DNA from: Candidatus Saccharimonadales bacterium
GTDB taxonomy: Bacteria; Patescibacteriota; UBA1384; 2-12-FULL-50-11
Assembly: GCA_035480235.1 (NCBI GenBank)
Contig: DATIHX010000005.1
Location: forward strand, 551-64,550
DNA length: 64,000 bases
Reading direction: 5' to 3'
Shown here: piece by piece, positions 142 through 61,308 of the stretch
Numbering within the stretch: position 1 is the first letter of the stretch
Layout: each line of letters starts with the position of its first letter
Notes under the pieces: generated by a model
Databases searched by the model: none
Told to the model about the DNA's origin: nothing
Seen by the model: the letters and a program-made list of their open reading frames with translations, nothing else
Program-made: the position numbers and the translations under genes

Positions 142-684
142 TTACCCAGCCGCCTTCATGGCCTTGCCTTGTTTCATCCGGATCTGCTCACCCTGGTAGC
201 GGACGCCTTTGCCCTTGTACGGCTCTGGCGGTCGAATGGCTCGGACTTCGGCGGCAAATTGGCCGATCTCCCGTTTGTCGCGGCCAGCCACGTTAATAAC
301 GTTCTTTTCAATTTTGACGGCCAGGCCTTCGGGAATAGCCAAGCGGACGGGGTGAGTGAAGCCGAGCTGGAGAACTAATTCTTCGCCTTCAATGGCGCCG
401 CGGTAACCGATACCAACCAATTCTAATTTCTTGGTAAAACCGTCTTTGGCGCCGGTGACAGCGTTTTGCAATAACGCTCGGACAGTGCCGTGAAGAGCGC
501 GGTAGTGTTTAAGGTCGCTCACCCGGTTCACCAGTAACTGGCCGTCTTTTTCGGTGACGGTAACGCCGTGCGGCAGAGCCACTTTCAGCTCGCCTTGCGG
601 GCCTTTGACGGTTGCTTCAACCGGGCCGAGCTCAACACTGACGCCCTCTAAAATCTTAACTGGCTTGATCCCGATTCTACTCAT
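142..684 (-). CDS. rplF: 50S ribosomal protein L6
   Basis: ORF track 142..723; start moved to ATG 682-684 ([11 protein letters not shown]...) preceded by GAGGAG SD; operon position. Confidence 0.9.
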
Positions 685-790
685 CGCTTTGCTCCTCGGA
701 ATCGGGAAATATCCAATAACCAATAATTAAGTTTTAAAGATTGAATATTATTTGAATATTGATTATTGAGTATTGAAAATTTCATTATAA
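685..790. repeat. AT-rich intercistronic spacer rpsH-rplF; degenerate copy (709-785) of the 116-nt module
   Basis: Shares atatcYaataaccaataattaagttt..aaagattgaatatt...atttgaatattgattattgaRtattgaaRatttc with 1163-1278. Confidence 0.8.
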
Positions 791-1162
791 TTACCAGACC
801 TCACACAATAATTCGCCGCCAACTTTTTGTTTGCGGGCTTGGTTGCCGGTTAAAACGCCTTTGGGGGTGGTTAAAATAACCATACCGAAGCCGGTTTTTG
901 GCCGGGGAATGGCTTGGTACTTAACGTAGCGGCGGATACCGGGCTTGCTGAGGCGTTTAATGTGGTTAAACGGCATATCGGTATTTAAAACGATATCAAG
1001 TTGGGTGCCGTTTTTATCAATGGAGGCGATAAAACCTTCACTTTTCAAAACCGCCGCCATCTCTTCCACCAACTTATTAGAGCGAGCGGTAACGGTTTTT
1101 TTATCGGCCATCGAAGCGTTCCGCAAACGGGTTAAAAAGTCGCTAACGGTGTCGTTATACAT
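791..1162 (-). CDS. rpsH: 30S ribosomal protein S8
   Basis: ORF track; MYNDTVSDFLTRLRNA... typical S8 N-terminus; GGAGG SD 8 nt upstream. Confidence 0.92.
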   Translation of the reverse strand: MYNDTVSDFLTRLRNASMADKKTVTARSNKLVEEMAAVLKSEGFIASIDKNGTQLDIVLNTDMPFNHIKRLSKPGIRRYVKYQAIPRPKTGFGMVILTTPKGVLTGNQARKQKVGGELLCEVW

Positions 1163-1279
1163 ACTTCAATCCTCCGGATTGGAAGCTAATATCTAATAAC
1201 CAATAATTAAGTTTCAAAGATTGAATATTCTTTATTTGAATATTATTTGAATATTGATTATTGAATATTGAAGATTTCT
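1163..1279. repeat. AT-rich intercistronic module, copy 1 (rpsN-rpsH)
   Basis: 116 nt, 4 mismatches to 2343-2458; TGAATATT words, inverted arms, SD hairpin. Confidence 0.9.
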
Positions 1280-1459
1280 TTACCATGAGGCCTTTCTGAC
1301 ACCAGGAATCTCACCCATTTGGGCGCGCTCACGAAAACAGATCCGGCAGATACCGAACTTGCGCAAGTAACCGTGCGGCCGGCCGCACAAAGCGCACCGG
1401 TTGACGGCGCGGGTGGAAAACTTGCTGACGGCCCTGGTTGAGTATCGTTTGCTAGCCAT
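1280..1459 (-). CDS. rpsN: 30S ribosomal protein S14, short Zn-ribbon (type Z) form
   Basis: ORF track 1280..1501; conserved part MASKRY...[23 protein letters not shown]...PGVRKASW with CxxC...CxxC; start set at ATG 1457-1459. Confidence 0.85.
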
Positions 1460-2015: not shown

Positions 2016-2341
2016 TATTTACCTTCCTTAGTAATAATCGGCTCTTTTGAGACCTTACTAATGCGTACTTTTTCTTGGCCGTTAACCCGAAACCCAACGC
2101 GCGTCGGTTTGTTACTAGCCGGGTCCAGTAACATGACGTTACTGATTTGCAGCGGCAAAGATTTGTCGATAATACCGCCCTGTGGGTTCTGTTGTGAGCG
2201 CTTGAGGTGTTTTTTAACCATATTCAGACCACTAACGATAACTTTACCGTCTTTGGCAAAAACCCGTTCAATGACGCCGGTTTTGTTGCGGTCGCGGCCG
2301 GTAATTACTAAAACTTTGTCGCCTTTTTTCAGTTTAGCCAT
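2015..2341 (-). CDS. rplX: 50S ribosomal protein L24
   Basis: ORF track 2015..2344 (first codon GTG); ATG 2339-2341 gives MAKLKKGDKVLVITGRDRNKTG, KOW motif; stop overlaps rplE start (TAATG). Confidence 0.9.
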   Translation of the reverse strand: MAKLKKGDKVLVITGRDRNKTGVIERVFAKDGKVIVSGLNMVKKHLKRSQQNPQGGIIDKSLPLQISNVMLLDPASNKPTRVGFRVNGQEKVRISKVSKEPIITKEGK

Positions 2342-2459
2342 CACTTCAATCCTCCGGATTGGAAGCTAATATCTAATAACCAATAATCAAGTTTCAAAGA
2401 TTGAATATTCTTTATTTGAATATTATTTGAATATTGATTATTAAGTATTGAAAATTTCG
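2342..2459. repeat. AT-rich intercistronic module, copy 2 (rplN-rplX)
   Basis: Ungapped alignment to 1163-1278 (offset 1180). Confidence 0.9.
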
Positions 2460-2828
2460 TCATAAGACATCCTTTGCTAAAGAAATAATTTTAGTGAAGC
2501 CTTTATCGCGCAGTTCCCGGGCGACGGGGCCAAAAATCCGGGTGCCTCGCGGCGTTCCGTCTGGGTTAATGACCACAGCGGCGTTGTCGTCGAAACGAAT
2601 GGTTGAGCCGTCAGCCCGGCGGCAGGGTTTGGTTTGGCGAACAATCACCGCTCGAACAACTTCGTGAGCTTTAACGTTAGCCCGGGGGATGGCGGTTTTA
2701 ACGGAAGCCACAACGATATCGCCGATCTCGGCGTCGTCGAAACGGCCCTGTTTGACAACCTTAATAACGCCTAGCGAACGAGCGCCAGAGTTATCGGCCA
2801 CGACCAGGCGAGTTAGAAGTTGAACCAT
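2460..2828 (-). CDS. rplN: 50S ribosomal protein L14
   Basis: ORF track 2460..2831 (first codon TTG); ATG 2826-2828 gives [16 protein letters not shown], classic L14. Confidence 0.92.
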
Positions 2829-2907
2829 CAACGATTTCCTCCGGAAATCGCAATATCCAATAACCGATAACTAAGTTTCAAGTATTGAGTATTGAGTATT
2901 GAGTATT
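2829..2907. repeat. AT-rich intercistronic spacer rpsQ-rplN with 7-nt tandem words
   Basis: agtattg x3 plus a variant at 2881-2908 facing ccaataaccgataac; SD hairpin 2832-2850. Confidence 0.85.
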
Positions 2908-3150
2908 TCATTTTGTTTTCTCAATTCGTTTCGTAATCTCCCAGCGTTTGTGACGGCTGAGCGGTTTGGTTTCAGCGATCTCAACTGTTTCGCCCATTTT
3001 GTACTCGTTATTTGGGTTTTGGGCCATAAATTTCCGGTGGCGTTGAAAGCGTTTCTTTAAGATTGGGTGAATGCGCCATAGCGATACCGCCACCACGGCC
3101 GTGTTGGTCATTTTGTCGGACACAATGATGCCGAGCTGAGTTTTACGCAT
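2908..3150 (-). CDS. rpsQ: 30S ribosomal protein S17
   Basis: ORF track; operon position, S17-like OB-fold sequence. Confidence 0.88.
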   Translation of the reverse strand: MRKTQLGIIVSDKMTNTAVVAVSLWRIHPILKKRFQRHRKFMAQNPNNEYKMGETVEIAETKPLSRHKRWEITKRIEKTK

Positions 3151-3374: not shown

Positions 3375-3788
3375 TTATCGGCTCTCCACTTTCACGAATT
3401 TGGTTTTGACAGGCAGTTTGTGAGCAGCCAAGCGCATCGCTTCGGCAGCGGTCGCTTCGTCGACGCCGGCCATCTCAAAAAGGATGGTGCCAGGTTTAAC
3501 AACAGCCACAAAGTGGTCGAGCGCGCCCTTACCGCCGCCCATGCCCACTTCAGCGGGTTTACCGGTGACGGGTTTATGCGGGAAAATTCGGACCCAAATT
3601 TTACCGCCACGTTTAATGTAGCGGGTCATCGCTCGGCGAGCGGCTTCGATCTGGCGGCTGGTGAGCCACGCCCGATCCATAGCTTTCAGGCCAAAGTCGC
3701 CAAAACTGACCGAAGCGCCGCGGGTAGCGATACCGGAAAACGTCCCCTTAGAGACTTTGCGATGTTTGAGTTTCTTGGGCAACAACAT
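3375..3788 (-). CDS. rplP: 50S ribosomal protein L16
   Basis: ORF track; [11 protein letters not shown]... and RMGGGKG-type motif (GMGGGKGA). Confidence 0.92.
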
Positions 3789-4444
3789 TATTCAGTCTCC
3801 TCGCGGTCGGTAAACAGGCCGCGGTTAATCCAGACTTTAACGCCAACAACGCCGTAGGTGGTTTGGGCGTGATAAATGCTGTAGTCGATATCGAATTTGA
3901 AGCGAGAAAGCGGGATTGAGCCGTCTTGGAATTTTTCGGTTCGGGCGATCTCGGCGCCGTTCAAGCGGCCGGAAACGATAATTTTAATCCCTTGGGCTTT
4001 GCTGGCCATCGATTTTTCGATCGACTGTTTGCAGGCGCGGCGGTACGGAATGCGGCGTTCGATCTGGTTACCGATGTTTTGAGCGACGAGTGAAGCCGAG
4101 ATTTCGGGATGGCGGTCTTCCAAAATCTCCAATCGGACGACCGGCTGGCCGGTTGGGTAGAATTTCTTTTGGAGTTGGTCTTTCAGAAGATTAATCCCCT
4201 GCCCGCCGCGGCCGATCACTAAGCCGGGTTTGCTGGTGGTAATTTTAACAGTGATTTTGCCCTGGGAACGAACAATTTCCACATCACGAACGCCAGCGTT
4301 ATTGAGCTGTTTTTTAATAAAATCGCGAATTTTGAAGTCGGTAATTAAGTAATTGCGGAACTCACTGTTGCGGGCGAACCACTTACTCTGCCAGTTGGCA
4401 GTAATGCTCATCCGGTTACTAATCGGGTTAATCTTCTGACCCAT
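3788..4444 (-). CDS. rpsC: 30S ribosomal protein S3
   Basis: ORF track; MGQKINPI..., KH-domain GRGG motif. Confidence 0.92.
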
Positions 4445-4583
4445 CAGGCAATCCTCCGGATTGAAATACTAAATTCGAAATTCGAAATCCCAAACAAATT
4501 AAAATTATTCAATGACCAAATGTTTGAAACATTGGAATTTCGGTAATTAGTTATTGTTTGGTTTTTGGGTGATTGGGATTTCA
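4445..4583. repeat. AT-rich intercistronic hairpin spacer rplV-rpsC
   Basis: aaattcg/aaatccc words 4471-4491 face tttggtttttgggtgattgggattt; 34-nt identity with 6176-6209. Confidence 0.85.
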
Positions 4584-4973
4584 TTATTTTGTTTCCTTTT
4601 TGGTGGTACGGACTTTAGCTGCTGGTTTGGCTTTAACTTTTGGGGCTTCGTCGCTGACCGTCACGTTTAAGTGAGCGATGTGTTTAAGGTAAGCGTTCGA
4701 ACGACCACGGGAGTTCGGGCGCATCCGTTTAATTTTTGGGCCTTCAGTGGCCATAATAGCGCTGATCGTCGCCTTCTCGGCGCCGAGTTCCTTCTGCTCG
4801 GCGGCGGCTTTGGCCATCAAGAGAGCTTGATGCAAATAGCGGGCCGAATCTTGGCTCATCACGGCTGTTTGATTGAGGGCAGTTTCCAAGTTTTTACCCA
4901 CTAAAAGACGGCCGACTGGGCGGAGTTTCTTAGCGGAGTGGCGCAAATAACGGAGTTTAACAGTGACTTGCAT
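4584..4973 (-). CDS. rplV: 50S ribosomal protein L22 (Lys/Ala-rich C-terminal tail)
   Basis: ORF track; operon position and L22-like core. Confidence 0.88.
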   Translation of the reverse strand: MQVTVKLRYLRHSAKKLRPVGRLLVGKNLETALNQTAVMSQDSARYLHQALLMAKAAAEQKELGAEKATISAIMATEGPKIKRMRPNSRGRSNAYLKHIAHLNVTVSDEAPKVKAKPAAKVRTTKKETK

Positions 4974-5263
4974 TACTTCTTATCTCCAACGGCTTGTTCT
5001 TTAGCCATCTTACCGCCGTGGCCTTTAAATTTGCGGGTTGGGGCGAATTCACCGAGGCGATGACCGACCATTTCTTCAACGACGGTTACTGGCAGGTGAG
5101 TTTTGCCGTTATGAACGCCAAAAGTGAAACCGACCATCTCGGGGAAGATCGTGCTGGCCCGAGACCACGTTTTCACGACGGTGCGGCTGCCGGCCGGCAG
5201 GCCTTCGATCTTCTTCAGTAATTTTGGGTCGGCCCAAGGGCCTTTTTTGAGTGATCGTGACAT
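4973..5263 (-). CDS. rpsS: 30S ribosomal protein S19
   Basis: ORF track; [10 protein letters not shown]..., [11 protein letters not shown] motif. Confidence 0.92.
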
Positions 5264-6102
5264 TACTTGCTCTTTCTCCGGGTAACAATATATTTAGTGG
5301 TTCGTTTGTTGCGGCGCGTTCGGTAACCGAGGGCTGGTTTACCCCACGGCGTTTTCGGATGTTTCAAACCGATCGAGTTAACCGCTTCACCGCCGCCGTG
5401 TGGGTGATCAATTGGGTTCATCGCTTTACCGCGAACGGTTGGCCGCCAGCCCATGTGGCGTTTCCGGCCAGCTTTGGCGATCCGGATACGGTTGTGGGTG
5501 GTGTTAGAAACCTGACCGACCGATGCCATACATTCTAACAGAACCTTCCGGATTTCTGAAGAAGCCAGCTTAATGTAAGCGTATTTGCCTTCTTTGGCGG
5601 TTAAGGTGGCGGCCGAACCAGCCGAACGAACCATCTGGCCGCCGCGGCCCGGTTGCAGCTCGACGTTATGGACTTGGTAACCAACGGGGATGTCGGCGAG
5701 CTTTAAGCGCGAGCCAAGGCCGTAGCTGCGTTTAAGTCCAGAAGTAACTTTGTCGCCCACTTTCAGGCCTTCGGGCGCTAAAATGTAGGTTTTTTGCGGC
5801 TGATCGTTAGTACTAGGGCGCTCGAGCAAGGCGATGAAAGCGCTGCGGTTTGGGTCGTATTCAAGAGCAGTGACAGTCGCTTCCCCTTCAAAGGGCAGGA
5901 ATTTAAAGTCGATCACCCGGAATAAACGCTTGGCGCCGCCGCCGCGATGGCGAACGGAAATCGAACCGCTGTCGTCGCGACCGGCGTGTTTGCGCAGTTT
6001 AATAGTTAAAGATTTTTCCGGGCGCTTTTTGGTGAGCGTGCCAAAGTCGCCGTAGGTTAAATGACGGATGGCGGGGCTAGTTGGTTTAACGGCACGGGGC
6101 AT
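5263..6102 (-). CDS. rplB: 50S ribosomal protein L2
   Basis: ORF track 5263..6105 (first codon TTG); ATG 6100-6102; [11 protein letters not shown] motif. Confidence 0.93.
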
Positions 6103-6205
6103 CAAGCAATCCTCCGGATTGAAAAACCAATTTCAAAATCCCAAATCCCAAACATATTGAAAATTTGGTAATTGATTATTGTTTGGTTTTTGGGTGATTG
6201 GGATT
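6103..6205. repeat. AT-rich intercistronic hairpin spacer rplW-rplB
   Basis: Same right arm and SD hairpin as 4445-4583. Confidence 0.85.
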
Positions 6206-6517
6206 TCATGTATTTTTTTCCTTCTTTTTGTCGTCTTTTTCGGTTAAACTCTCGAAACCGGGGATTTTTTGTTTGGGCGGCAACTGAACGTAAGCTTTAC
6301 GGATTTGAGCCCGAACACCTGGGCGGCGTTTAAAGTTAACTTTTTTGGCCGGCAAATTGACGATCCGGACCGAGAGCGGTGTGACAGCGTAGAGCTGGTG
6401 AAGCTCTTTGGTGACGGTGGTTTTGTTAGCATCTTTTTCGATCAAAAAGACATACAAACCTTTGTCGATGGCGGCGGCCGATTTCTCTGTTAAATACGGT
6501 TGGATAACACGGTTCAT
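6206..6517 (-). CDS. rplW: 50S ribosomal protein L23
   Basis: ORF track; operon position between rplD and rplB. Confidence 0.88.
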   Translation of the reverse strand: MNRVIQPYLTEKSAAAIDKGLYVFLIEKDANKTTVTKELHQLYAVTPLSVRIVNLPAKKVNFKRRPGVRAQIRKAYVQLPPKQKIPGFESLTEKDDKKKEKNT

Positions 6518-7143
6518 GCGGCCTCTTTCTTCGTTGCGGTTTTAGCTTTAGCGGCTGGTTTCGCCTGTCCTGAGCTTGTCGAAGGGGTTTTCAGTAAACC
6601 GCGCGTGGTCGCAGCAGTTTTTTCCATCACAATTTTTTGGGCCTTTGATAGATCTAAAATGGAGAGGTTTTTATCCACAACAACCGTCACGTTTGGTAGA
6701 TTGCGGCAAGCCAGAATGAGTTGCGGTTGGAACTCGCTGGTGACTAAAACGATGTTGTTGCCGGTAATTTCCAGTTTTTTCAGCAACGTTAGCGCTTGCT
6801 TGGTTTTAGCGTCGGTTAAAGCCAAGCTATCGGTGACGAGCAGCTGTTTTTGTTCGTAGAGGTGGTTCAATAATTGATTAAAGGCGGCTTTGGCCATCTT
6901 TTTCGGCAGAACTTGTTTGAAGGTTCGCTCTTTTTGCGGACCAAAAGTAATACCGCCGCCGACCCAAATTGGGCTACGCCGCGAACCGGCCCGAGCGTTA
7001 CCGGTCCCTTTTTGCTTCCAGGGTTTGCGGCCGCCACCTCGAACGTTACCGCGAGTTTTGGTGTGCGAGTTAGTCTGCCGGCTATTAGCCTCGGCGGCTA
7101 AGACGGCTTGTTTAACTAAAGAAATATTGAGTTTGGTGGCCAT
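6514..7143 (-). CDS. rplD: 50S ribosomal protein L4
   Basis: ORF track; GGGRKPWKQKGTGNAR motif. Confidence 0.92.
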   Translation of the reverse strand: MATKLNISLVKQAVLAAEANSRQTNSHTKTRGNVRGGGRKPWKQKGTGNARAGSRRSPIWVGGGITFGPQKERTFKQVLPKKMAKAAFNQLLNHLYEQKQLLVTDSLALTDAKTKQALTLLKKLEITGNNIVLVTSEFQPQLILACRNLPNVTVVVDKNLSILDLSKAQKIVMEKTAATTRGLLKTPSTSSGQAKPAAKAKTATKKEAA

Positions 7144-7145
7144 CT

Positions 7146-7721
7146 TTACGCGTTTTTGATGATAACTCGGCCGCGAGCCGGGCCAGGAATCGGGCCGCTA
7201 ATAATAATGAGGTTTTCGGCTGGTTTAACGTCAACCACTTTGGCGCCGCGAATGGTTAAATTCTCGCCGCCCATTCGGCCGCTCATTTTTTGGCCTTTTG
7301 GCACCCGTTGTGGGCGCTGAGCGCCGATCGAACCCGGACCGCGGTGATTATCGCCGCCGTGGGTCATCGGACCGCGAGAGAAGTTGTGACGCTTGATGGT
7401 ACCGGCCATACCTTTGCCTTTGGTGACGCCGGAAACTTTGACTTTTTCGCCGACGGTAAATTGGGAAACACTAACTTTTTCTTGGTCGGCTTCTAACTCG
7501 GTGGCTTCTTTCAGCCAAACGCCGCGTTTCGAACCAGTTTTTTCGGCTAATTTTTTTTGAGCCTTAACGGTTTTTCCGGGCACGGCAACGGCGAGCTGGA
7601 TTCGCTCGCCGGTTTTAATTACACTGTTAGGCTCGGCAAAAACGACCGTTGCCCCAATCAGACGACCTTTGTCGTCCCATACTTGGGTCATGCCAATTTT
7701 TTGACCGAGCAGTAGCTTCAT
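7146..7721 (-). CDS. rplC: 50S ribosomal protein L3
   Basis: ORF track; KGKGMAGTIKRHNF motif; first gene of this operon segment with its own promoter. Confidence 0.92.
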   Translation of the reverse strand: MKLLLGQKIGMTQVWDDKGRLIGATVVFAEPNSVIKTGERIQLAVAVPGKTVKAQKKLAEKTGSKRGVWLKEATELEADQEKVSVSQFTVGEKVKVSGVTKGKGMAGTIKRHNFSRGPMTHGGDNHRGPGSIGAQRPQRVPKGQKMSGRMGGENLTIRGAKVVDVKPAENLIIISGPIPGPARGRVIIKNA

Positions 7722-7823: not shown

Positions 7824-8339
7824 CTACTTTAATAACTCACCGAATTGTTTTTTAACTTTGTCGAGTTTGGGGTTGATGACAATTTGGCAGTACGGTTCGC
7901 GACTATGGTTAGAAAAGTAGTCACGATGGTAATTTTCGGCCAGGTAAAAGTGGTCAAGCGGCTGAACCTTGGTGACAACGGAATTGCCATCTTGATTGGA
8001 AGCATTAATTTCCACGATAAACTTTTCAGCTGCCGTTTTTTGCTCCTCAGTCGTGTATAAAACTAACGATCGGTACTGCGGGCCGACGTCAGCACCTTGG
8101 CGGTTAAGGGTAGTTGGGTCGTGAGTGGCGAAAAAGACGGTGAGAAGTTTTTCGTAATCAATCTCAGCGGGATCATACTCAATTTTCACCGCTTCGGCGT
8201 GATCGCCAATTGAATGATAATTTGGGTTTGGTGTTATGCCGCCAGCGTAACCAGGTTCAACACTCTTGACGCCTTTCAACATCTTAAAGATGGCTTCGGT
8301 ACACCAGAAACACCCGCCAGCAAAAACCGCTACTGCCAT
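7824..8339 (-). CDS. msrA: peptide-methionine (S)-S-oxide reductase
   Basis: ORF track; AVFAGGCFWCTE active-site motif and GYAGG. Confidence 0.88.
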   Translation of the reverse strand: MAVAVFAGGCFWCTEAIFKMLKGVKSVEPGYAGGITPNPNYHSIGDHAEAVKIEYDPAEIDYEKLLTVFFATHDPTTLNRQGADVGPQYRSLVLYTTEEQKTAAEKFIVEINASNQDGNSVVTKVQPLDHFYLAENYHRDYFSNHSREPYCQIVINPKLDKVKKQFGELLK

Positions 8340-8345
8340 GTTCGT

Positions 8346-8354
8346 ATTGTAACA
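8346..8354 (-). promoter_or_regulatory. extended -10 (TGTTACAAT) 6 nt upstream of the msrA ATG; leaderless candidate
   Basis: No SD; -10 to ATG distance fits a leaderless start. Confidence 0.45.
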
Positions 8355-8471
8355 ACAAATTGCGGTGCTACGATGAGCGTGTTAGGTGCGGAGTTCCGGA
8401 GAGCTCCCAGTTGGCAAAATGGTCCCGGCCGTCTCACCGTTTGAGGCATTCCCCGCCCGCAAGGCGGGGTC

Positions 8472-8870
8472 TTACTCGCTGGTTTTACCTTCGAATTTGT
8501 CGGTTTGGTCGGCTTCGCCTTGGGCTTTCGTGGCGTGGATCACCCGGTCGCGGTGGTTGGGCGGCGAGTAGATTGTGTAAAGCTTGAGTGGTTCAGTGGC
8601 CGAGGTATTGATCACGTTATGGCGGGTTCCGGCCGGCACGATCACCACGTCGCCGTCGCCCACTATTTGTTCCACGCCGTCCAGAACAGTTTTGCCGTCG
8701 CCTTTTTCAAAGCGGAAAAACTGATCAACGGTGTGAACCTCTTCGCCGATCTCTTCATTCGGCAATAAATTCATCAGCACTAATTGGCTGTGCTCGGCGG
8801 TGTAGAGCACCTCGCGAAAATTATTATTTTCCAGCGTCAGGTGTTCGACATTAGCTTTGTAACCCCTCAT
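8472..8870 (-). CDS. cupin-domain protein
   Basis: ORF track; 132 aa with cupin-like GxxxxHxH-type region (EEIGEEVH...) and PAGTRHN motif. Confidence 0.6.
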   Translation of the reverse strand: MRGYKANVEHLTLENNNFREVLYTAEHSQLVLMNLLPNEEIGEEVHTVDQFFRFEKGDGKTVLDGVEQIVGDGDVVIVPAGTRHNVINTSATEPLKLYTIYSPPNHRDRVIHATKAQGEADQTDKFEGKTSE

Positions 8871-8903
8871 CCCTCAACATTAGCACAAATATAACGAAGC
8901 GGG

Positions 8904-8932
8904 TGGAAATGTTCCTCAATTTCCGCTACTAT
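8904..8932 (+). promoter_or_regulatory. promoter-like TGGAAA-17-TACTAT
   Basis: Upstream of ORF 8969-9334. Confidence 0.4.
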
Positions 8933-8968
8933 ACAACCAGCGAAATTGTCGCGGAGGTACTTTTATTT

Positions 8969-9334
8969 ATGGCTATTAGTTCAAAAGACTTAGAAGTTGC
9001 TGCTGGGAATTGCCTACCGGAGCCAACTCCGGAAGCCGCGGCTGCTTTCCGAGCAGCGTTAGTTGGGAGGGGTAATCGACTCCTTGAAGGCAGTAACGCC
9101 GGTAGAACGATTGAGCTTTGTATCAGAGCGTCTGTTGCGATATCTGAAACTTCTCTCTGCCCGGAAGCAACCAACTTTTTACACATTCAGTTGCGTGGTC
9201 GAGAAAATGTTGAACTGCGATCGAAAATGCTTCAGTGGGTGGTTCAAGACGCTGAAGAACCGCCCGGCTATCGCGTTAACCTCACAGAAAATAGCCGATC
9301 GGCAGCGAGACTGCCCGACCGCGTTTCCTCCTAA
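8969..9334 (+). CDS. hypothetical protein (orphan cassette)
   Basis: ORF track 8903..9334; ATG 8969 follows GGAGG (8953-8957); promoter-like TGGAAA-17-TACTAT at 8904-8932 and hairpin terminator 9341-9364; no family recognised; start uncertain (ATG 8909 possible). Confidence 0.45.
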   Translation: MAISSKDLEVAAGNCLPEPTPEAAAAFRAALVGRGNRLLEGSNAGRTIELCIRASVAISETSLCPEATNFLHIQLRGRENVELRSKMLQWVVQDAEEPPGYRVNLTENSRSAARLPDRVSS

Positions 9335-9340
9335 TAACTT

Positions 9341-9364
9341 TCCCGCCTTTGGCGGGATTTCTTT
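9341..9364 (+). terminator. intrinsic terminator-like hairpin
   Basis: tcccgcc ttt ggcggga followed by tttcttt. Confidence 0.6.
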
Positions 9365-10643
9365 AATTGCCGCTGCGGGTATAAATTTTGGCGGCGGCCG
9401 TGAAAGCTGCAACTTGAGTAGGGGTTTGGCCTGGGAAAACTTCAACCTTGAGCGTGTTAGCATCGGTTAATTGGAGTAGGGCGGTGGCCTGTGAAACACC
9501 ATTAGTCGGCATGGTAACGGGGCCGGTTGGTGTACTCATTTGATTCCATTGTTGGCCGTTAGCGTATTGATACTGGCCGCCTTGCAACAGTTCGTACTTA
9601 ACCATGCCCGTGTCAACGCCGATGGTGGCCGGATCGGTGACTAGCGGCTTGATGATGAATTGCTTGGCATCCCCGCCGTTGTAGGCGCCCACCGAGAACC
9701 CCCAAACCGTTGGGTCGATCCAGTCTGGCGTGATTGCTAAATGACCGGCCCAGTAGCTCCCGCTTGGCGGCTTAGTTGGATCGTTATAGCCGCCGCTGCC
9801 TTTGAGAAACCACGAACCAATCAACTTACCAGCCACGTCGTAAGCATAGTAGCCGTCACGCGGTTCGGCTTGACGAGCATAGAACGGCAAAATACTGGTT
9901 TTAACAGCCGCCGAAAAGTAATCGAGCGGCGCGACAGTATGGATTTTCCAGGCTTCGCCGGCGTAGGCCGCTGGCACTAGAAGCTTCGGGTTATTTTTGG
10001 TCATATCCCAGACGGCGAAATCGAGCGACTGGCCGCCCATTTTGGCAATCGCTTGGCCAGCTTTGACCGGAATATTAATATCGGTGTTACCGTTACTGCC
10101 GTGGCCGTTTTGCTCCCAACCCTTGGGCAATTGGGCCTCGATATCCGGCGCCAAAGAAGTCGCTAAATCGAAGTAACTCATAAAGGTACAAGTGTAACTA
10201 ATTGTTACTCGGTAGTCGCCAGCCACGCCGTTGCGGGCGGCATCGTTAGCGCTGTGCGGCCGATACTCGATATCAGCCAAAGTACCGTCGGCTAGCGCCA
10301 GTACATCGCTCGAGTCTTTGACGTTATTTTTGGCCCAGTAGTATTCGTGATCAACGGGGGTGACATGGCCACCGACCGTCAAGCCGTACGGATCGATAAT
10401 ACTGATGTCGGCTGGCTTCATCGGAGCGTAGTTTAGCGCCACAGTGCCAGTGCCCGAACAGTGGTTAGCTGTGAGTTGCTTGCCGGCGGCCACCGCTACT
10501 GAATCTGTTGCGGCAACACTGGCCGGTTGAGGTGAGGTTGAAATTGTTGGGTGTTTAGCGTTTTGACGAGCAACAACAGCGACTATCCCCCCGCCCACTG
10601 CCACAACAACGATCAGCCAAACCCACCACTTTTTCCACCACAT
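9363..10643 (-). CDS. hypothetical membrane-anchored extracytoplasmic protein
   Basis: ORF track 426 aa; N-terminal hydrophobic anchor WWVWLIVVVAVGGGIVAVVA; no family recognised. Confidence 0.65.
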   Translation of the reverse strand: MWWKKWWVWLIVVVAVGGGIVAVVARQNAKHPTISTSPQPASVAATDSVAVAAGKQLTANHCSGTGTVALNYAPMKPADISIIDPYGLTVGGHVTPVDHEYYWAKNNVKDSSDVLALADGTLADIEYRPHSANDAARNGVAGDYRVTISYTCTFMSYFDLATSLAPDIEAQLPKGWEQNGHGSNGNTDINIPVKAGQAIAKMGGQSLDFAVWDMTKNNPKLLVPAAYAGEAWKIHTVAPLDYFSAAVKTSILPFYARQAEPRDGYYAYDVAGKLIGSWFLKGSGGYNDPTKPPSGSYWAGHLAITPDWIDPTVWGFSVGAYNGGDAKQFIIKPLVTDPATIGVDTGMVKYELLQGGQYQYANGQQWNQMSTPTGPVTMPTNGVSQATALLQLTDANTLKVEVFPGQTPTQVAAFTAAAKIYTRSGN

Positions 10644-10681
10644 AGTTTTATGCTGAAGGAAAGTAGAAGGCTGTCAAATAT

Positions 10682-12412
10682 TCAAAGAAATAACCGAACC
10701 GTGCGGATCTCGTCGAAACTATACTCGTTACCCAGGCGTTCACGGGCTTGGGACAAAAACATCTGACCTTCTTTGGCTTTGACGGCCAGCAGTGCCGTTT
10801 TAATCGGTTGGAAACGGTCGGTTTTTGGTTTAAATTTAGCCAAGTCAACCGCCGGCACAATTTTGCCGTCTTCAACGAGTTTTTCCAGATGGCCGATGAT
10901 GGTGCCGAATGTCATACCGCGGTGTTTGGCGATGCCGGAGGGCGTCATTTTTTGGTCGATGAGTAACTCACGAGTAATTTCTTGGGTGGGGATTTTTGGC
11001 ACAGCTTTGGCTGGTTCGGCGCCCGGTCCCCCACCGCAAGCTTTCACAAAATTGGCTTGACGTTTAATTAAAACTGTTGGGTCGAGCGATTGAAGCTGGC
11101 GAACGGCGGTCATCGAGGCTTCACGGAACTTGGCGTCCTCAGCCGAGACTTCCGGGTGAACTTCCAGCGCCCGTTCGTTAAAACCGAGTAAATAGAGGCC
11201 GTCGAGGGTCCGGACTCTGGAGAGCGCCACGTAACCTTGGCCAAATTCGAAGGCTTGGCGCAGGTCCATGACAGCGGCATCCAGCGACATCCCTTGGCTT
11301 TTGTGAACGGTAATCGCCCAGGCTAACCGGAGCGGGAATTGACTGATAGCGGCCAGGACTTTGCCGCCGTCGTCAATCGCCCATTCGGCCGGTTCAGCCA
11401 CAATCACTTTACCGCCGCGGGTTTTAATAATCGGCCAGCTATTGGCTCTGTTAAAGCCGATAATCTCGCCCAAAGTGCCGTTGACGTATTGACGCTCCTG
11501 ATGGTTCTTTGTGAACATTACTTTAGCCCCGACTTTAAGAGTTAAAGTCTCAGGCGAGAGGCAGTTGCGTTTGAGGCTATCGATCAACGGTGGCGCGCCG
11601 CGGCTATTCATAGCAAACGATTTGGAAATAGTTGTTAATTTGCCAAGTTCGGTTTCGTTGAGCTGATCAACATTAGCGTTGTGCGGGAACAATTTAGTGA
11701 CAGTGGCGGCCGGCAGGGCGGTGACAATCCGAGCCGTAAACGTGGCGCGAGCTTCGTTAGTTAATTCATTCCGGCGAATAGCGTTGAGGGCACCGAGAAA
11801 AGCCAAGTCGTCTTGACGGTGCTGCTCCAGCAAGTAACAAACGGTGGGGTCGAGCTCCTTCCAGGCCGGCGAAGCGAAGGCGAAAAGGCTGGTGACTTCG
11901 TCGCCAAAGAGGCTTTGTTCCGTTGATTCCTGAGATTGCACCGGCCGGCGAGTGACCGGTGGCAGCTGGAAGAAATCGCCGACTAAAACCACCTGCAAAC
12001 CGCCGAACGGTTGGTTGCCTTGAGTAGAACCGGGCACCTTGGAGGTGCGAACGGCCCGGCAAACCCGTTCTACCGTGGTGAAAGTTTCAGCTGAGAGCAT
12101 AGAAATTTCGTCGATAATTAAGACCTTGGTTTTTTTGATACGGTTAGCAACGCGGCTGTTGGTTACGATATTGGCCAGTTCAGATTTGGTAAGGGTACTT
12201 TTAATGCCGATACCGCTCCAGGAGTGAATGGTCAGCCCGCCGATGTGGGTGGCGGCGATGCCGGTGGAAGCGGTGATCGCCGGTTCGACACCGTTGGAAC
12301 GTAAATATTTGACGTATTCGTTAATAGTATACGTCTTGCCGCTGCCCGGTTCACCCGTTAAAAAGACGTTGTTGCCAGTTTTCAAGATTTCTAAGGCTTC
12401 TTTTTGGGTCAT
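10682..12412 (-). CDS. PIF1/RecD-like superfamily-1 DNA helicase with C-terminal helix-turn-helix
   Basis: ORF track 576 aa; Walker A GEPGSGKTY, Walker B LIIDEISM, VGDFFQLPPV and TVHKSQG motifs typical of the PIF1/RecD clade; C-terminal HTH-like segment (MTPSGIAKHRGMTFGTIIGHLEKL). Confidence 0.8.
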   Translation of the reverse strand: MTQKEALEILKTGNNVFLTGEPGSGKTYTINEYVKYLRSNGVEPAITASTGIAATHIGGLTIHSWSGIGIKSTLTKSELANIVTNSRVANRIKKTKVLIIDEISMLSAETFTTVERVCRAVRTSKVPGSTQGNQPFGGLQVVLVGDFFQLPPVTRRPVQSQESTEQSLFGDEVTSLFAFASPAWKELDPTVCYLLEQHRQDDLAFLGALNAIRRNELTNEARATFTARIVTALPAATVTKLFPHNANVDQLNETELGKLTTISKSFAMNSRGAPPLIDSLKRNCLSPETLTLKVGAKVMFTKNHQERQYVNGTLGEIIGFNRANSWPIIKTRGGKVIVAEPAEWAIDDGGKVLAAISQFPLRLAWAITVHKSQGMSLDAAVMDLRQAFEFGQGYVALSRVRTLDGLYLLGFNERALEVHPEVSAEDAKFREASMTAVRQLQSLDPTVLIKRQANFVKACGGGPGAEPAKAVPKIPTQEITRELLIDQKMTPSGIAKHRGMTFGTIIGHLEKLVEDGKIVPAVDLAKFKPKTDRFQPIKTALLAVKAKEGQMFLSQARERLGNEYSFDEIRTVRLFL

Positions 12413-12555
12413 GCATAGCCGAGCGTAGCAATAATTTCTTGTTCGGGAAACTTTCGGCTTACTGAAAATTTACGATGAGTCCTGGAATTTCATCCAAAAC
12501 TTGATTATACTTTCTTCACTGCGCAAGCAGAATTTCCTGAAGAGGCACTTTAACA

Positions 12556-17889: not shown

Positions 17890-17890
17890 C

Positions 17891-18364
17891 TTAGTATCTC
17901 GCGAAGTGAGCAAAAGCCCGGTTGGCTTCGGCCATTTTGTGCAGATCTTCGCGTTTTTTCATAACAGTGCCGGTGTTATCGAGAATATTTTTCATCTCGG
18001 TATACAGCTTGGCTTCCATCGGCTGGCCTTTAGCGTTACGGCAGGCATCCAGCAGCCAGCGCATAACAAGCAAGGTTTTGCGGCTGGGGCGGACTTCCAT
18101 CGGCACTTGGTAAGTAGCACCACCAACTCGGCGGGAACGAACTTCCAATATGGGCGAGGCTTTTTCGATAATTTCACGAATCAGCTGCGGTACTTCGACG
18201 TTGCGTTCTTTGGCCAATTTTTCAGCGGCAGTGTAAACAATTGCTTGAGCGGTCGATTTCTTGCCGTCCCACATCACTTTATTGATGAGTTTACTCACGA
18301 GCGGGTCCTGAAACTTCGGCTCTAGCACTAGAGTCGGTTTTTTAAAGTTAGAACGACCACGCAT
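17891..18364 (-). CDS. rpsG: 30S ribosomal protein S7
   Basis: ORF track 157 aa; S7-like sequence, str operon position. Confidence 0.93.
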   Translation of the reverse strand: MRGRSNFKKPTLVLEPKFQDPLVSKLINKVMWDGKKSTAQAIVYTAAEKLAKERNVEVPQLIREIIEKASPILEVRSRRVGGATYQVPMEVRPSRKTLLVMRWLLDACRNAKGQPMEAKLYTEMKNILDNTGTVMKKREDLHKMAEANRAFAHFARY

Positions 18365-18459
18365 TAGACTGCGCTCCCGCTCGAATTACTGAATTTTCGA
18401 ATTACTGAATTACTGAATTGATTTAGTAATTTAGTAATTAAGTTATTTAGTAATTCCAT
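18365..18459. repeat. AT-rich spacer rpsL-rpsG built from nine phased 8-nt words
   Basis: 18383-18454: gaattact-type x5 then ttagtaat-type x4; the two halves are imperfect reverse complements. Confidence 0.85.
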
Positions 18460-32143: not shown

Positions 32144-32148
32144 GAGCG

Positions 32149-33852
32149 CTATTCTTCTTTCGTCTCAACAAACGCTAAAATATCGCCTTTGTCGATTTCA
32201 ACGGTTTCACCCTCAACGGAAACACCGCACTGCTCGCCTTTTTCCACTTTGTCGGTTTCGATTTTGCCCAGTTTAAGCGAGCTGGCCTTGGCAGTACCAA
32301 TTTCCTCTTTGTCGCGATAAATAACCAAATCTAAATTCTGGCGGGCTTCGCCATCGATGACTTCGCCGCCGACAATTGCTTGGCCTTTAGCTCGGCTGAA
32401 AACAGCCAGTACTTTGAGGCGGCCAACTTCAGTTTTCACCAAGACCGGCGTGGCGATCCGTTTAATTTCGCTCTGCAAAAATTCGATAACTTCGTAAATA
32501 ATGCCGTATTCCTTAACCACGACACCCTCTTTTTCGGCCAATTCCACCATCCGTTTATTGACCAGGACGCGGAAAGCTACAATTAAAGCCTTTGAGGGCT
32601 TAGCGAGGTTGATGTCGTTTTCCGTCACCGCCCCGATACCGCCGGAGATAATTTCCACAAAAGCATCTTTGTTTTTAAGTTTGGAAATTGAGCCCTCCAG
32701 CGCCGAGAGCGAGCCGCCGACGTCGGCCTTAATAATAATCCGGTAGGTGTTGGCGTCTTCGGCCGCACCAGTTTTGGCTTTGGCGAACGTTTGGGTCATC
32801 GCCCGGGCGACTTTTTCGTTGGGCACGACTTCTAACCGATCGCCAAATTTTGGCACGTCTTTGAGGCCTTGGATCTGCACCGGCATCGCCGGGCCAGCAT
32901 GGTTGATAGTGCCACCTAAATCGTTCAAAATAGCCCGAACCCGGCCAAAAGCTTTGCCCACCACCACCACTTGGCCGGTTCGGAGCGTGCCGTTATACAT
33001 TAGTACGACCGCTAGCGGACCAACTTGTTTGTCGAGGTTGGCTTCGATGACAATGCCCTCGGGTAAAGCTTCCGCGTCAGCTTTCAGTTCCAGTAAATCA
33101 GTGGTTAGTAAAACAATTTCCAGCAGGTTGTCCACGCCGTCGCCGGTTTTGGCCGATACCGGCACCATACTGACTGGCCCGCCCCACTCCTCTGGCACCA
33201 GGCCGGCGTCGGAGAGCTGTTGTTTGACGCGATCGGGGTTAGCGCCCGGCAGATCGGCTTTATTGATGGCCACCACTATCGGCACGTTAGCGCCCTTAGC
33301 GTGTTCAATGGCTTCCAAGGTTTGGGGCTTGACGCCGTCGTCGGCGGCTACTACTAAAATAACCACGTCGGTTAAAGCCGCGCCGTGGGCCCGCAGCGCC
33401 GAAAAAGCTTCGTGGCCCGGCGTGTCCACAAAGGTAATTTTTCGTTTTGGGCCTTCTTTGGTTTTGAAATCTATTTGGTAGGCGCTGATGTGCTGGGTAA
33501 TACCGCCGGTTTCGCCGGCCGCAACGTTGGCCGAACGGATGAAGTCGAGCAAACTAGTCTTACCGTGGTCAACATGGCCCATAATGGTGACAATTGGGGC
33601 GCGTTCGGTAGCATTTTTACTGACGGTGACGGTTTTATTAACGACTTTTTGGGTTTCCGGTTCGGCGACGTAGCCAAATTCTTCCGCAATCAAAGCCGCT
33701 GTGTCGTAATCGAGCGACTGGTTAATTGTCGCCATAATGCCGCCATTAATGAGCGCCGTGATAATTCTAGTCGGGTCGTATTTCAATAAACTTGAAAGTG
33801 ACCGGACGGAAATTTCTTCCGGTAGTTGGATAACTTTCTTTTCGTCAGCCAT
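32149..33852 (-). CDS. infB: translation initiation factor IF-2 (short N-terminus)
   Basis: ORF track 32149..33855 (TTG then ATG); [18 protein letters not shown] motifs. Confidence 0.95.
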
Positions 33853-33999
33853 CAACCCGCTCCGTCTCTGAAATTTTCAAGTAGAAATAACTAAGTGGCA
33901 AATAATACTTAAAGTTTAAATATTTAAAAGATTGATTATTATTGCGAAGCAAATTGGTACGCCAGTCAATATTTGTAACTTGACTATTGGATATTAATT
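33853..33999. repeat. AT-rich spacer gyrA-infB
   Basis: Visibly AT-rich ~145 nt with local hairpin ccaatagtcaa...ttgactgg and a promoter-like TTGACT-17-CGCAAT in minus-strand sense. Confidence 0.65.
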
Positions 34000-36627
34000 T
34001 CATTTTGCCGCCTGTTCCTCATCCGCTTCCGCCACTACCGCCATCGTACTGACGCGGTCGTCGCCGTTCATCCGGATCAAGATGACGCCAGAGGCTTGGC
34101 GGGAGAGTTTCTTGACTGATCCCACCGAAATCCGAATGACTTGCCCGCTAGTAGTGGCAATCACTAGGTCGTGGGCAGCGGCGTCCAGCACTTCACCAGC
34201 GGTCAGTTTGCCAGTTTTGTCGGTGAGTTTAGCGATTCGAATACCGGAACCGCCGCGATGTTGATTGCGAAATTCTTTAATATCCACTTTTTTGCCGATG
34301 CCTTTTTCACTAAGGACGCAAACGGCTTGGGCCGATTCGGCTAGCACGGCCGTTTCGATGACTTCGTCGTTGCCTTTGAGGTTGATGCCGCGCACGCCGG
34401 CCGCCGAGCGGCCCATCGGCCGGACGTCGTTTTCGTTGTACATAATGACTTGACCGCCGCGAGTAATTTGAGCGATCTCATCGTCGCCGGAGGTTTGGCG
34501 GACCCAAATCAGTTGATCGTTTGGCCGCAAGCCAACGGCGGTAACACCGCTTTTGCGGACGTTCTCGAATAGGTCTTTAGCAACCCGTTTGACGACGCCT
34601 TTTTTGGTGGCGAAGAAGAAATATTTGAAATCGGCCGCTTTGCCGATGTTCACCATGGCGGTGACTTTTTCGTCAGGATTAATCCGGACGACGTTGGGCA
34701 ACGCGATGCCTTTACTTTGGCGGCTGGAAACCGGGATCTCAAAGGCTTTAATTTTGAAGGCCCGGCCTTTGTTGGTGAACAGCAAAATGTCGTCGTGCGT
34801 CGAGGCGAAAATCATCTCCATTACTTGATCATCTTCGCGCACCGAGGTGCCGATGACGCCCTTACCGCCGCGTGACTGGCTTTTGTAGGTGTCTGGCAGG
34901 AGCCGTTTAATGTAGTTATTAGCAGTAATTGAAATCAAAACGTCTTCTTCGGCGATCAAATCCAGGGCCGTTAGTTGACCTAAAGCCTCTGGCCGGATTT
35001 CGGTTCGGCGGGGATCGTCGTATTTCTTTTTAATTTCCAAAAGTTCGTCGGTAATGATTTTCTGGATTCGGGCGGGTTTGGCTAGGATATCTTCCAAGTC
35101 TGCGATCAGTTTCATCACCGCGTCGTACTCGTCGTAAATCCGCTGACGCTCAAGGTTGGCCAGCTGCGACAAGCGCATATCCAGAATCGCGTTGGCCTGG
35201 ATTTCGGAGAGTTTGTACTTCTCCATCAAAGCCGTTTTGGCGGCGTCGCGGTTAGCTGATTCTCGAATCAGTTTGATGATGGCGTCCAGATGATCGAGGG
35301 CAATTTTCAAGCCTTCTAAAATGTGGGCCCGGGCTTGAGCAATTTTCAGCTCGTATTCGGTTCGCCGAGTGACAACCGTGGTTCGGTGAGCCAAGAATTC
35401 CACCAAGATTTCGGTTAAATTCAAAAGTTTTGGCTGAATGCCATCGATCAGCGCCACCATATTGTAATGAATGACCGTTTGGAGCTCAGTGAGATCGTAA
35501 AGTTGGTTGAGGATTTTGCTGGACGGGGCCCCAACTTTGAGTTCAATAACCACCCGCACCGCCTCTTTACGGTCGGATTCGTCGCGAATATCGCTGATAC
35601 CTTCGATTTTTTTAACTTTGACGAGCTCGGCGATGTGGCGGATCCAGTTGGATTTATTGACTTGGTACGGCAAAGCCGTTACCAAAATAATCTCGCGTTT
35701 TTTATCTTCTTCGATTGAAGCGACGCCGCGGACAATCACTCGGCCGCGACCAGTTGAAAGCGCTTCTTTAATATCAACCTGGCTGTAGGCGACGCCGCCG
35801 GTCGGAAAGTCCGGACCGGTGATAATCTCGATTAATTCATCGATTGTTGCTTCCGGGTTTTTTTGGAGTAAGAGTAAACCGTCGATAATCTCGCCGGGAT
35901 TATGGGTGGGGATGTTAGTCGCCATGCCAACAGCGATGCCCTGCGAGCCGTTAATCAGGAGATTGGGTAAACGAGTCGGTAGAACGACCGGCTCTTGGCG
36001 GGTGCCGTCGTAGTTCTCGCGGAAATCGACGGTCTCTTTTTCAATATCGGCGAGCAGCGCGTCGGACGGCGGCGCTAGGCGGGCTTCCGTGTAACGCGGG
36101 GCGGCCGCTGAATCGCCGTCCATCGAGCCGAAGTTACCTTGGCCGTTGACGAGCGGTAAGCGTAAACTCCACCACTGGGCCATCCGGACCATTGAGTCGT
36201 AAACAGCTAATTCGCCGTGCGGATGGAAGCTACCTAAAACTTCACCGGTGATTTTAGCCGATTTCCGGTGTTTAGCGCTTGGCGTTAAGCCCATCTCGCT
36301 CATGGCGAAAAGAATCCGCCGGTGCACTGGCTTCAAGCCGTCGCGAACGTCCGGTAAGGCGCGCATCACAATAACGCTCATGGCGTAGTCGAGATAGCTC
36401 TCGGTCATCTCGTTGGTAATCGACCGCGAGCGGATCAGGCCGTTAATCGTTTTTTCTTCCGTCACTTCGTCGCTGCCGGCGGTATGATAACCGCGAGTGG
36501 TCGTTGGCTCAGCTGCAACTGACGGTTCGGTTTGGTCGTCGCCGCTCTCAACTTCTTCAACAATAGCGTCCAGCGTCTCTTCCGGCTCGGTGTTTTCTGG
36601 CTGTGGAATTACTTTGTCGTCTTCCAT
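34000..36627 (-). CDS. gyrA: DNA gyrase subunit A
   Basis: ORF track 875 aa; [22 protein letters not shown] and AAPRYTE (catalytic Tyr) motifs; acidic N-terminal extension. Confidence 0.96.
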
Positions 36628-36758
36628 TAGTTATTTAAATCCGAATATCGAATATCGAAATGCGAAACAATTTCAAAATTCAAATGTTTAAAAATTTGAG
36701 AATTAGGATTTTCGGTTTGTTTCGGATTTCGGATTTCGTGCTTCGAATTTTTCATTAT
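36628..36758. repeat. AT-rich hairpin spacer gyrB-gyrA with 7-nt CG-anchored words
   Basis: cgaatat cgaatat cgaaatg cgaaaca (36642-36669) faces cggattt cggattt cgtgctt cgaattt (36723-36750). Confidence 0.85.
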
Positions 36759-61288: not shown

Positions 61289-61308
61289 AATAATTCAGCT
61301 CTTCGCTC

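Follow-up and report, generated by a model that had tools for sequence, protein, structure and literature searches.

The locus analysed here raises the question of what the long AT-rich spacers between co-oriented genes of a ribosomal-protein operon are, and how the genes on both sides remain connected across them. The window, a 64-kb stretch of a Candidatus Saccharimonadales bacterium genome (contig DATIHX010000005.1, positions 551 to 64,550), carries the genes of the S10/spc operon on the minus strand, and the spacers concerned are those at the rplV–rpsC and rplW–rplB junctions, with 27–33% GC in a genome of 50% GC. The original prediction regarded them as related copies that share an identical 34-nt arm and fold over their full length into an AT-rich hairpin. 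This hairpin interpretation was partly right, but it overlooked that the spacers are insertions, that each contains a relay open reading frame (ORF) and that a small hairpin encloses the Shine–Dalgarno (SD) sequence. The explanation that we consider probable is a family of intercistronic repeats resembling mycobacterial interspersed repetitive units (MIRUs), that is, short AT-rich insertions at ancestral stop/start overlaps (TAATG or TGATG) that preserve translational coupling.

Sequence comparison confirmed that the two spacers are related copies of one repeat subfamily. The segments 4551..4584 and 6176..6209 (both minus strand) were identical at 34 of 34 positions, and form the A/C-rich 5′ arm of each copy (sense ATGAAATCCCAATCACCCAAAAACCAAACAATAA), which starts with ATGAAATCCCAATCACCC on the minus strand and encodes MKSQSPKNQTI. 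At ≤3 mismatches the window held no third match to the arm, and 100 shuffles yielded none at all; the shared arm is real and far beyond chance. The left-arm word aaatcccaaaca (4485-4496; 6143-6154) and the SD block caatcctccggattg (4449-4463; 6107-6121) were also found in both spacers as described, and when the two were aligned, the mean column identity was 84% and only one indel, of 33 nt, appeared. The "extra internal segment" ascribed to the rplV–rpsC copy is indeed there (4497..4529, minus strand), but it is not an insertion. In an alignment with four further members, these 33 nt were shared with other members of the family, and since the long form is common to them, the rplW–rplB copy carries an in-frame 33-nt deletion; the segment, apical in position, is probably an ancestral part of the element. 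With the remainder diverging by ~15%, 34 consecutive identities would be unexpected (0.85^34 ~0.004), which points to gene conversion, a recent common origin of the arm or a constraint on it.

The main property that had been overlooked is that each spacer is one open frame on the sense strand. In the rplV–rpsC element, a 46-aa relay ORF (4444..4584, minus strand; MKSQSPKNQTITNYRNSNVSNIWSLNNFNLFGISNFEFSISIRRIA) starts with an ATG (4584-4582) overlapping the rplV TAA in a TAATG and ends with a TGA (4446-4444) overlapping the rpsC ATG in a TGATG, and 2 and 4 stops occur in the remaining two frames. In the rplW–rplB element, the relay ORF has 35 aa (6102..6209, minus strand; MKSQSPKNQTIINYQIFNMFGIWDFEIGFSIRRIA), its ATG (6209-6207) overlaps the rplW TGA (ATGA) and its TGA (6104-6102) overlaps the rplB ATG (TGATG). 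As had been noted, the shared arm includes the stop of rplW, namely the TGA (6208-6206) of its leading ATGA, and the rplV stop is the TAA at 4586-4584, the final A of which is the A of the arm's ATG. The two stops fall in different registers because the shared arm begins with a start codon, and the overlap of this ATG with TGA (ATGA) or TAA (TAATG) yields the two classical coupling geometries. Further, an AAGGA lies 9 nt before each relay AUG, in the 3′ end of rplV (4594..4598, minus strand) and of rplW (6219..6223, minus strand). Both sites match the position at which the relatives carry the SD (AAGGAG) of a directly abutting downstream gene, so that the relay ORF has apparently taken over the site at which the displaced gene was once initiated.

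Ten AT-rich elements were found in the window and one more in locus L015, every one between co-oriented genes, about 80–150 nt in size and with 23–34% GC. The relay layout of the two spacers was also present in seven further window spacers and in the one of L015, and in 9/10 window elements the start and stop of the relay ORF overlapped or abutted the flanking stop and start codons. As a null model, sequences were shuffled locally in 12-nt blocks with the terminal bases kept. Relay ORFs were detected in 22 of 26 long spacers from this genome and its relatives compared with ~1.9 expected, and in 18 of these 22 the ATG was ≤9 nt from the upstream stop. Fifteen of the 26 spacers came from relatives, without selection for ORFs, and 12 of the 15 carried a relay ORF. 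The local-shuffle probability of a relay ORF was only 0–0.23 per spacer, and an open frame as a mere composition by-product of the A/C- and G/U-rich arms was rejected on this ground. In detail, the probability of an open frame for the rplV–rpsC relay ORF was 0.11 under dinucleotide shuffling and 0.05 under local shuffling; for single ORFs the dinucleotide-shuffle probabilities ranged over 0.02–0.28, and their product over all ORFs was ~1e-10, for copies that are not independent and represent roughly five independent families. The indels between homologous copies, 33 nt in subfamily 2 and 15 nt in subfamily 1, preserved the frame; all six homologous subfamily-2 copies, 35–50 codons long, were open, and the other two frames of each element contained 1–8 stops.

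The same junctions were then compared in the 11 closest related loci, from metagenome-assembled genomes (MAGs) of Patescibacteria, Saccharimonadales and 'Berkelbacteria' with rpsC 69–76% identical. There the genes were mostly separated by −4 to +5 nt (TAATG or TGATG), a typical junction being ...AAGGAG...TAATG, where the downstream gene has its SD within the upstream one. Long spacers were sporadic and stood at differing junctions between genomes: rplW–rplB, rpsH–rplF and rpsL–rpsG in L001, rpsN–rpsH in L002 and L003, many junctions in L006, rplW–rplB, rplV–rpsC and others in L010, rplV–rpsC in L023, and rplC–rplD, rplW–rplB, rplV–rpsC and rpsN–rpsH in L025. Two further spacers, L006 7324-7611 (rplE–rpsN) and L011 5323-5476 (rplC–rplD), were excluded from the counts; they contain N runs between duplicated gene ends and look like MAG scaffolding artefacts. 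Tight junctions in most relatives together with sporadic long spacers indicated that the spacers are insertions rather than conserved leaders, in a filled-versus-empty comparison that rests on distant relatives (rpsC identity ≤76%). That most relatives have no spacer at these junctions goes partly against the original prediction, as it speaks for a lineage-specific insertion family and not for a conserved cis-regulatory leader.

Each of the two spacers also carries a short stem-loop at its 3′ end, CAAUCC-GGA-GGAUUG, at 4449..4463 (minus strand), with the SD GGAGG running from the loop into the 3′ stem, 4 nt ahead of the rpsC AUG, and at 6107..6121 (minus strand), upstream of the rplB AUG. It was present in every predicted fold of both spacers. 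A GGA triloop with a directly flanking 6–9 bp stem was found in 13 of 27 long spacers (14 of 27 when one 4-bp stem is included), 2–7 nt upstream of the start codon, whereas the stem flanking a GGA at tight junctions reached 3 bp at most (n=182) and shuffled flanks gave ≥6 bp with a probability of ~0.009. In the SD variants GGAGG, GGAGA and GGAAG alike, GGA forms the loop and the other bases belong to the 3′ stem. Over the 13 elements the hairpin covaries, as 11 different stem sequences all keep pairing, for example CAAUCC/GGAUUG, GCGAUUUCC/GGAAAUCGU, CUUAAUUAC/GUAAUUAAG, CCAAACC/GGUUUGG and CUCAAUUUU/GAAAUUGAG. Of the cells, 86% were paired vs. 57% in shuffles, 33 vs. 12.7 were changed on both sides, and the covariation score was 0.75 vs. 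0.24; none of 500 shuffles reached the observed values, and slid controls were far lower. The small 3′ hairpin over the SD, as predicted by folding and covariation, is a well-supported structure of the elements.

A more far-reaching explanation, which we regard as doubtful, is an actively mobile family that targets TRATG/ATGA overlaps and has spread between divergent Patescibacteria, with the relay ORF and the SD triloop encoded by the element as a portable 'bicistronic design' cassette that makes insertion into essential operons nearly neutral. The repeat family as such, shared between divergent genomes, supports the preferred explanation. At least four members of subfamily 2 occur in this genome (rplV–rpsC, rplW–rplB, downstream of secY, and gyrB–gyrA) and two in L001 (rplW–rplB and rpsL–rpsG), that is, six members are spread over two genomes with rpsC 76% identical. 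A hidden Markov model (HMM) of these six also matched subfamily-1 copies (E = 4e-7 to 5e-3) and elements in L025 and L006, and a related left arm, GAAATCCCAATCACCCAAA, was found in L025 (rpsC 72% identical). Such likeness at the DNA level between genomes in which synonymous sites should be saturated speaks for mobility, horizontal spread or strong constraint. If the family is mobile in this way, its strand asymmetry, with the A/C-rich arm first and the antisense strand folding better, would suggest a single-strand transposition of the IS200/IS605 or RAYT type; no RAYT-like ORF was detected by Pfam among the six hypothetical ORFs of the window. The design may be encoded by the element itself, or it may be what survives selection after insertion. 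Separately, L025 10820-10912 holds a truncated subfamily-2-like left arm, GAAATCCCAATCACCCAAATCCCAAACAAAT, near-identical to the shared 34-nt arm, in which TAG stands in place of ATG and the frame is broken by a stop; it looks like a decayed copy.

The long hairpin of the original prediction was examined by repeat analysis and folding. An imperfect inverted repeat is present and a hairpin is predicted, but one only modestly better than in shuffled sequence. In the rplV–rpsC copy, the G/U-rich 3′ arm (4464..4497, minus strand; sense UUUGUUUGGGAUUUCGAAUUUCGAAUUUAGUAUUU) contains GAAATTC ×3.7 (TRF 4463-4488, period 7), and against the 5′ arm its GGGAUUU pairs with AAAUCCC, its UGUUU with AAACA; in the rplW–rplB copy, the corresponding arm (6122..6159, minus strand; UGUUUGGGAUUUGGGAUUUUGAAAUUGGUUUUU) pairs over ~20 bp with the 5′ arm, and AAATCCC is repeated ×2.4 (TRF 6136-6152). 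The arms of the family are built of period-7 units (AAATCCC, GAAATTC, AGTATTG ×3.9), those of the rpsL–rpsG copy of 8-nt units. Whole-element tandem arrays were not seen, only internal periodicities of 7–26 nt. Other members of the family retain the core stem CCAAACA/TGTTTGG, in which one pair has changed from C-G to G-C in a compensatory way. The z scores of the rplV–rpsC and rplW–rplB hairpins were −1.74 and −1.72 as sense RNA, −2.97 and −2.41 as antisense RNA, and −1.57 to −1.93 as DNA, while the subfamily-1 copies reached −2.4 to −3.7. In 9 of 10 window elements the antisense (plus) strand gave a more stable fold than the mRNA strand did, and selection on the long hairpin in the sense-strand RNA was rejected as the main explanation, given this and the modest z scores. 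On the sense strand, the A/C-rich arm came first in all 10 window elements; this asymmetry might arise because stop codons are avoided on the sense strand, or from an intermediate of single-stranded DNA.

These data also bear on the possibility that the spacers are functional structured mRNA elements, for instance RNase III/E sites, stabilisers, thermosensors or attenuators tuning ribosomal-protein stoichiometry, with the open frame secondary. The inverted repeat in all copies with its compensatory core-stem change, the strong covariation of the SD hairpin, the fold scores of subfamily 1 and the enrichment in highly expressed operons (7/10 window elements lie in ribosomal-protein operons) would all be expected from such elements. 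However, the long hairpin of both spacers barely beats shuffles on the sense strand (z = −1.7) and the antisense strand mostly folds better, the element is missing at the same junctions in most relatives, which argues against a conserved regulator, and both the start/stop overlaps and the frame-preserving indels are left unexplained. Rfam gave nothing at gathering score over the whole window, and chance-level matches only at 4380-6300 with E up to 10 (rteR, E = 7.9; MIR2599, E = 3.1); a ribosomal-protein autoregulatory leader or other Rfam cis-regulatory RNA was rejected on the lack of a gathering-score match and of the spacers in most relatives. An intrinsic terminator or attenuator was likewise rejected, as the stems are AT-rich and neither spacer has a terminator-like site. 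On balance, we consider a structured regulator unlikely. No tRNA or tmRNA was found, and no promoter-like match in the rplV–rpsC and rplW–rplB spacers. In subfamily 1, a weak sigma-70-like TTGAAA-18-GATATT (9/12) was seen on the sense strand at 2881-2852, 2397-2368 and 1217-1188 (minus strand), and by analogy with Correia elements these copies might act as internal promoters.

A GGA in the loop of a hairpin over the SD is the classical architecture of CsrA/RsmA sites. The GGA-loop hairpins could accordingly be read as sites at which an RNA-binding regulator, CsrA-like or other, or a ribosomal protein would control downstream translation; it would suit this that the loop GGA is invariant and that the hairpin around it covaries and extends over the SD. 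But the loop has merely 3 nt, each element has one GGA hairpin although CsrA dimers typically bridge two sites, several elements have none, and the invariance of GGA is explained by its being the core of the SD GGAGG; such a regulator is very improbable. We give equally little credence to the view that the products of the small ORFs are true micro-proteins with a function, expressed together with ribosomal proteins. The ORFs are open, their start codons have upstream SD-like motifs, one is called as a gene by NCBI, and the N-terminus MKSQSPKNQTI is identical in two copies, with a similar KSQSPKSQT in L025. Nevertheless, the 46-aa peptide had no protein homologue among 5.8 billion clusters, which makes a protein family unlikely, and the peptides of the two subfamilies are wholly different. 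Where copies of 97% identity differ, the few changes are non-synonymous, conservation is at the level of the DNA repeat (7-nt periodicity) rather than the codon, and large indels let the peptide length range from 27 to 52 aa. Finally, chance likeness in AT-rich sequence or a metagenome assembly artefact can practically be dismissed: the contig comes from a MAG and the two N-run spacers of L006 and L011 do look like scaffolding artefacts, but the 34-nt identity never arose in shuffles, the copies differ among themselves, and the same architecture occurs in independent assemblies from different studies (L001, L006, L010, L023 and L025).

Several points weigh against the MIRU-like explanation preferred here. 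Translation of the relay ORFs and re-initiation after them are what we infer from the layout, and movement by transposition would likewise have to be assumed. Taken singly, the ORFs were weakly significant (P = 0.01–0.28 each), because the A/C-rich and G/U-rich arms are intrinsically stop-poor, and 4 of the 26 long spacers, including 27950-28090, had no relay ORF by the criteria used. The hairpins entering the covariation test were picked for having stems, an ascertainment bias, and the gyrB–gyrA and rpsH–rplF copies have no SD hairpin. A transposase was not found, the Pfam search on the six hypothetical window ORFs giving no matches. Scans of genome and metagenome contigs with rpsC yielded no relative above 76% identity, and consequently the element boundaries and any target-site duplication are ambiguous. 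Models with duplication of TGA, ATG or ATGA, or with no duplication, each fit only some copies, and the 3-nt TGA or ATG(A) repeated at both ends of several copies is inseparable from the stop and start codons themselves. Two short insertions in relatives, L010 13096-13134 (rpsN–rpsH) and L001 13388-13469 (rpsH–rplF), are flanked by a duplicated start of the downstream gene, namely its first 8–10 nt (ATGTATAA; ATGTCGCG.AT). A short ORF now begins at the original start, and the new start has a new SD in front of it. These insertions hint at a longer target-site duplication for some insertions.

For the preferred explanation of coupling-preserving insertions, the following course of events is proposed. 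A ribosome terminating on rplV or rplW would meet an AUG that overlaps the stop codon and at which the downstream gene was initiated ancestrally, with the AAGGA still 9 nt upstream. It would translate the 46- or 35-codon relay ORF and thereby melt the AT-rich inverted repeat and the SD stem-loop, terminate at the UGA overlapping the rpsC or rplB AUG (UGAUG; UAAUG elsewhere), and then re-initiate there. Re-initiation would be aided by the element's own GGAGG, which would otherwise be half-sequestered in the stem-GGA-stem hairpin, and this hairpin would limit independent initiation, so that downstream translation would stay dependent on upstream translation. The gyrB–gyrA copy, with no SD before gyrA, would fit a pure termination–reinitiation. 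The relay peptide itself is probably irrelevant, and only the openness of the frame matters.

The remaining relay-ORF elements of the window, all on the minus strand, follow the same plan with variations. Those in the S10/spc operon are at rpsQ–rplN (2828..2911; 27-aa relay ORF, ATGA to TGATG, AATACTC ×3.9, with the SD hairpin GCGAUUUCC-GGA-GGAAAUCGU), rplN–rplX (2341..2463; 40-aa relay ORF, ATGA to TGATG), rpsN–rpsH (1155..1286; 43-aa relay ORF) and rpsH–rplF (681..785; 34-aa relay ORF, the end of which overlaps rplF in an ATGA). The rplN–rplX relay ORF is the one called as a gene in the NCBI record, and this element was matched by the subfamily-2 HMM at E = 4e-7; it and the rpsN–rpsH copy, both subfamily 1, are 97% identical over 116 nt. 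Elsewhere, elements are located at rpsL–rpsG (18364..18459; 31-aa relay ORF, TAAATG to TAATG, the copy with arms of 8-nt repeats), gyrA–infB (33845..34003; 52-aa relay ORF, with an ATGA start and its end 5 nt inside infB) and gyrB–gyrA (36627..36755; subfamily 2, 42-aa relay ORF, ending in TAATG). The element downstream of secY (L015 17500-17647) is just outside the window. The spacer at 27950-28090, with 18% GC, is nearly palindromic and related to subfamily 1; it is the sole AT-rich hairpin spacer of the window that is not open, and it contains a promoter-like TTTACC...TATAAT directly before the next gene. Between rpsG and fusA, a hydrophobic ORF of 63–71 aa (17698-17913, minus strand) starts a few nt past the rpsG stop and at its end shares 11 nt with the start of fusA; either a small membrane protein or one more coupled insert is conceivable.

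Around the two spacers, the minus-strand genes are rplC (7146-7721), rplD (6514-7143), rplW (6206-6517), rplB (5263-6102), rpsS (4973-5263), rplV (4584-4973) and rpsC (3788-4444), and rplP to rplF follow rpsC toward lower coordinates on the same strand. A block of non-ribosomal genes (7824-13191) separates rpsJ (13295-13630) from rplC; it comprises a PIF1-like helicase (10682-12412), a 426-aa unknown protein, a cupin and MsrA, and a 211-aa unknown protein on the opposite strand, and a promoter-like TTGACT-17-CATAAT was seen upstream of rplC at 7804-7776. A different, GC-rich repeat of ~115 nt occurs in two inverted copies that are 89% identical, at 32034-32148 (plus strand) and 61304-61420 (minus strand), one of them directly past infB (32149-33855), on the opposite strand, and the second within a called ORF of 69 aa. 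Its consensus fold has 38 pairs, 2 of them compensatory (e.g., AUCC/GGAU vs. AUGC/GCAU), and Rfam gave no matches above chance for it; it may be an unannotated structured small RNA or repeat.

If the MIRU-like explanation is true, it accounts for the tolerance of ~100-nt insertions in the essential coupled operons (S10/spc, str and gyrBA–infB) of a streamlined genome of the candidate phyla radiation (CPR), as the inserted sequence would re-create coupling through a relay cistron and an SD of its own. It would extend a principle documented so far for mycobacterial MIRUs to an unrelated phylum, and suggests that 'translation-transparent' selfish repeats are a recurrent solution. The relay ORFs would also be a source of spurious 27–52-aa 'hypothetical protein' calls in Patescibacteria. 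The elements would provide natural sequences usable as candidate insulating coupling cassettes, and the covarying SD hairpins a natural set of variants in which local structure can be related to the dependence of downstream initiation on upstream termination.

Among the known repeats, REP/BIME elements were rejected as a counterpart, as these are GC-rich palindromes of 20–65 nt with a conserved 5′ tetranucleotide, compared with 80–150 nt and 23–34% GC here. With miniature inverted-repeat transposable elements (MITEs) and other palindromic families (Correia/NEMIS, ERIC, RUP, BOX, REP/BIME), the elements share that they are short, non-autonomous, multi-copy, co-transcribed and hairpin-forming with inverted repeats; the inverted repeat here, however, is internal (arm vs. 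arm) and not clearly terminal, and we know of no description of these classical families as start-to-stop relay ORFs. The open-access literature text searched, on MITEs with translational coupling and on repeats in Patescibacteria or the CPR, held no description of these elements. Rickettsia palindromic elements, as summarised in PMC3184786 (Ogata et al. 2000), are similar in being palindromic selfish repeats that survive in gene-dense genomes with one frame open, but they lie within coding sequences and become part of the host protein, whereas the present elements are separate coupled mini-cistrons with an SD and stop/start overlaps.

The closest layout is that of the MIRUs. According to two reviews, MIRUs insert at start codons in such a way that their own ORF and the gene are coupled (PMC12548453 and PMC3184786, both with reference to Supply et al. 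1997), have ORFs overlapping neighbouring genes, as well as tetranucleotide direct repeats and also imperfect inverted repeats (PMC3184786), and are suggested to minimise by this layout their impact on expression (PMC12548453, citing Supply et al. 1997). The likeness covers short dispersed repeats (about 40–100 bp) inserted at start codons in intercistronic operon regions, a small ORF that overlaps the stop and start codons on either side and so keeps coupling, imperfect inverted repeats, absence from the homologous site in relatives, and perhaps short direct repeats at filled sites. In contrast to MIRUs, which are GC-rich and found in Actinobacteria, the elements described here occur in Patescibacteria, are AT-rich (23–34% GC) and are single units without tandem arrays of variable repeat number; their arms consist of 7–8-nt repeats, their downstream overlap is mostly TGATG (−1) rather than −4, and they carry the covarying stem-GGA-stem hairpin at the SD. 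To our knowledge, no such SD hairpin has been described for MIRUs. Given the AT-rich versus GC-rich composition, sequence homology to MIRUs is unlikely, and the likeness is one of layout and proposed function. A further parallel is offered by synthetic 'bicistronic design' leaders and natural coupling upstream ORFs, in which, according to PMC12548453, a short ORF carries the SD of the gene and ends on its start, and the arriving ribosome unfolds local structure and re-initiates. The elements of this genome differ from these leaders in being a natural, repeated and apparently mobile cassette instead of an engineered or gene-specific one.

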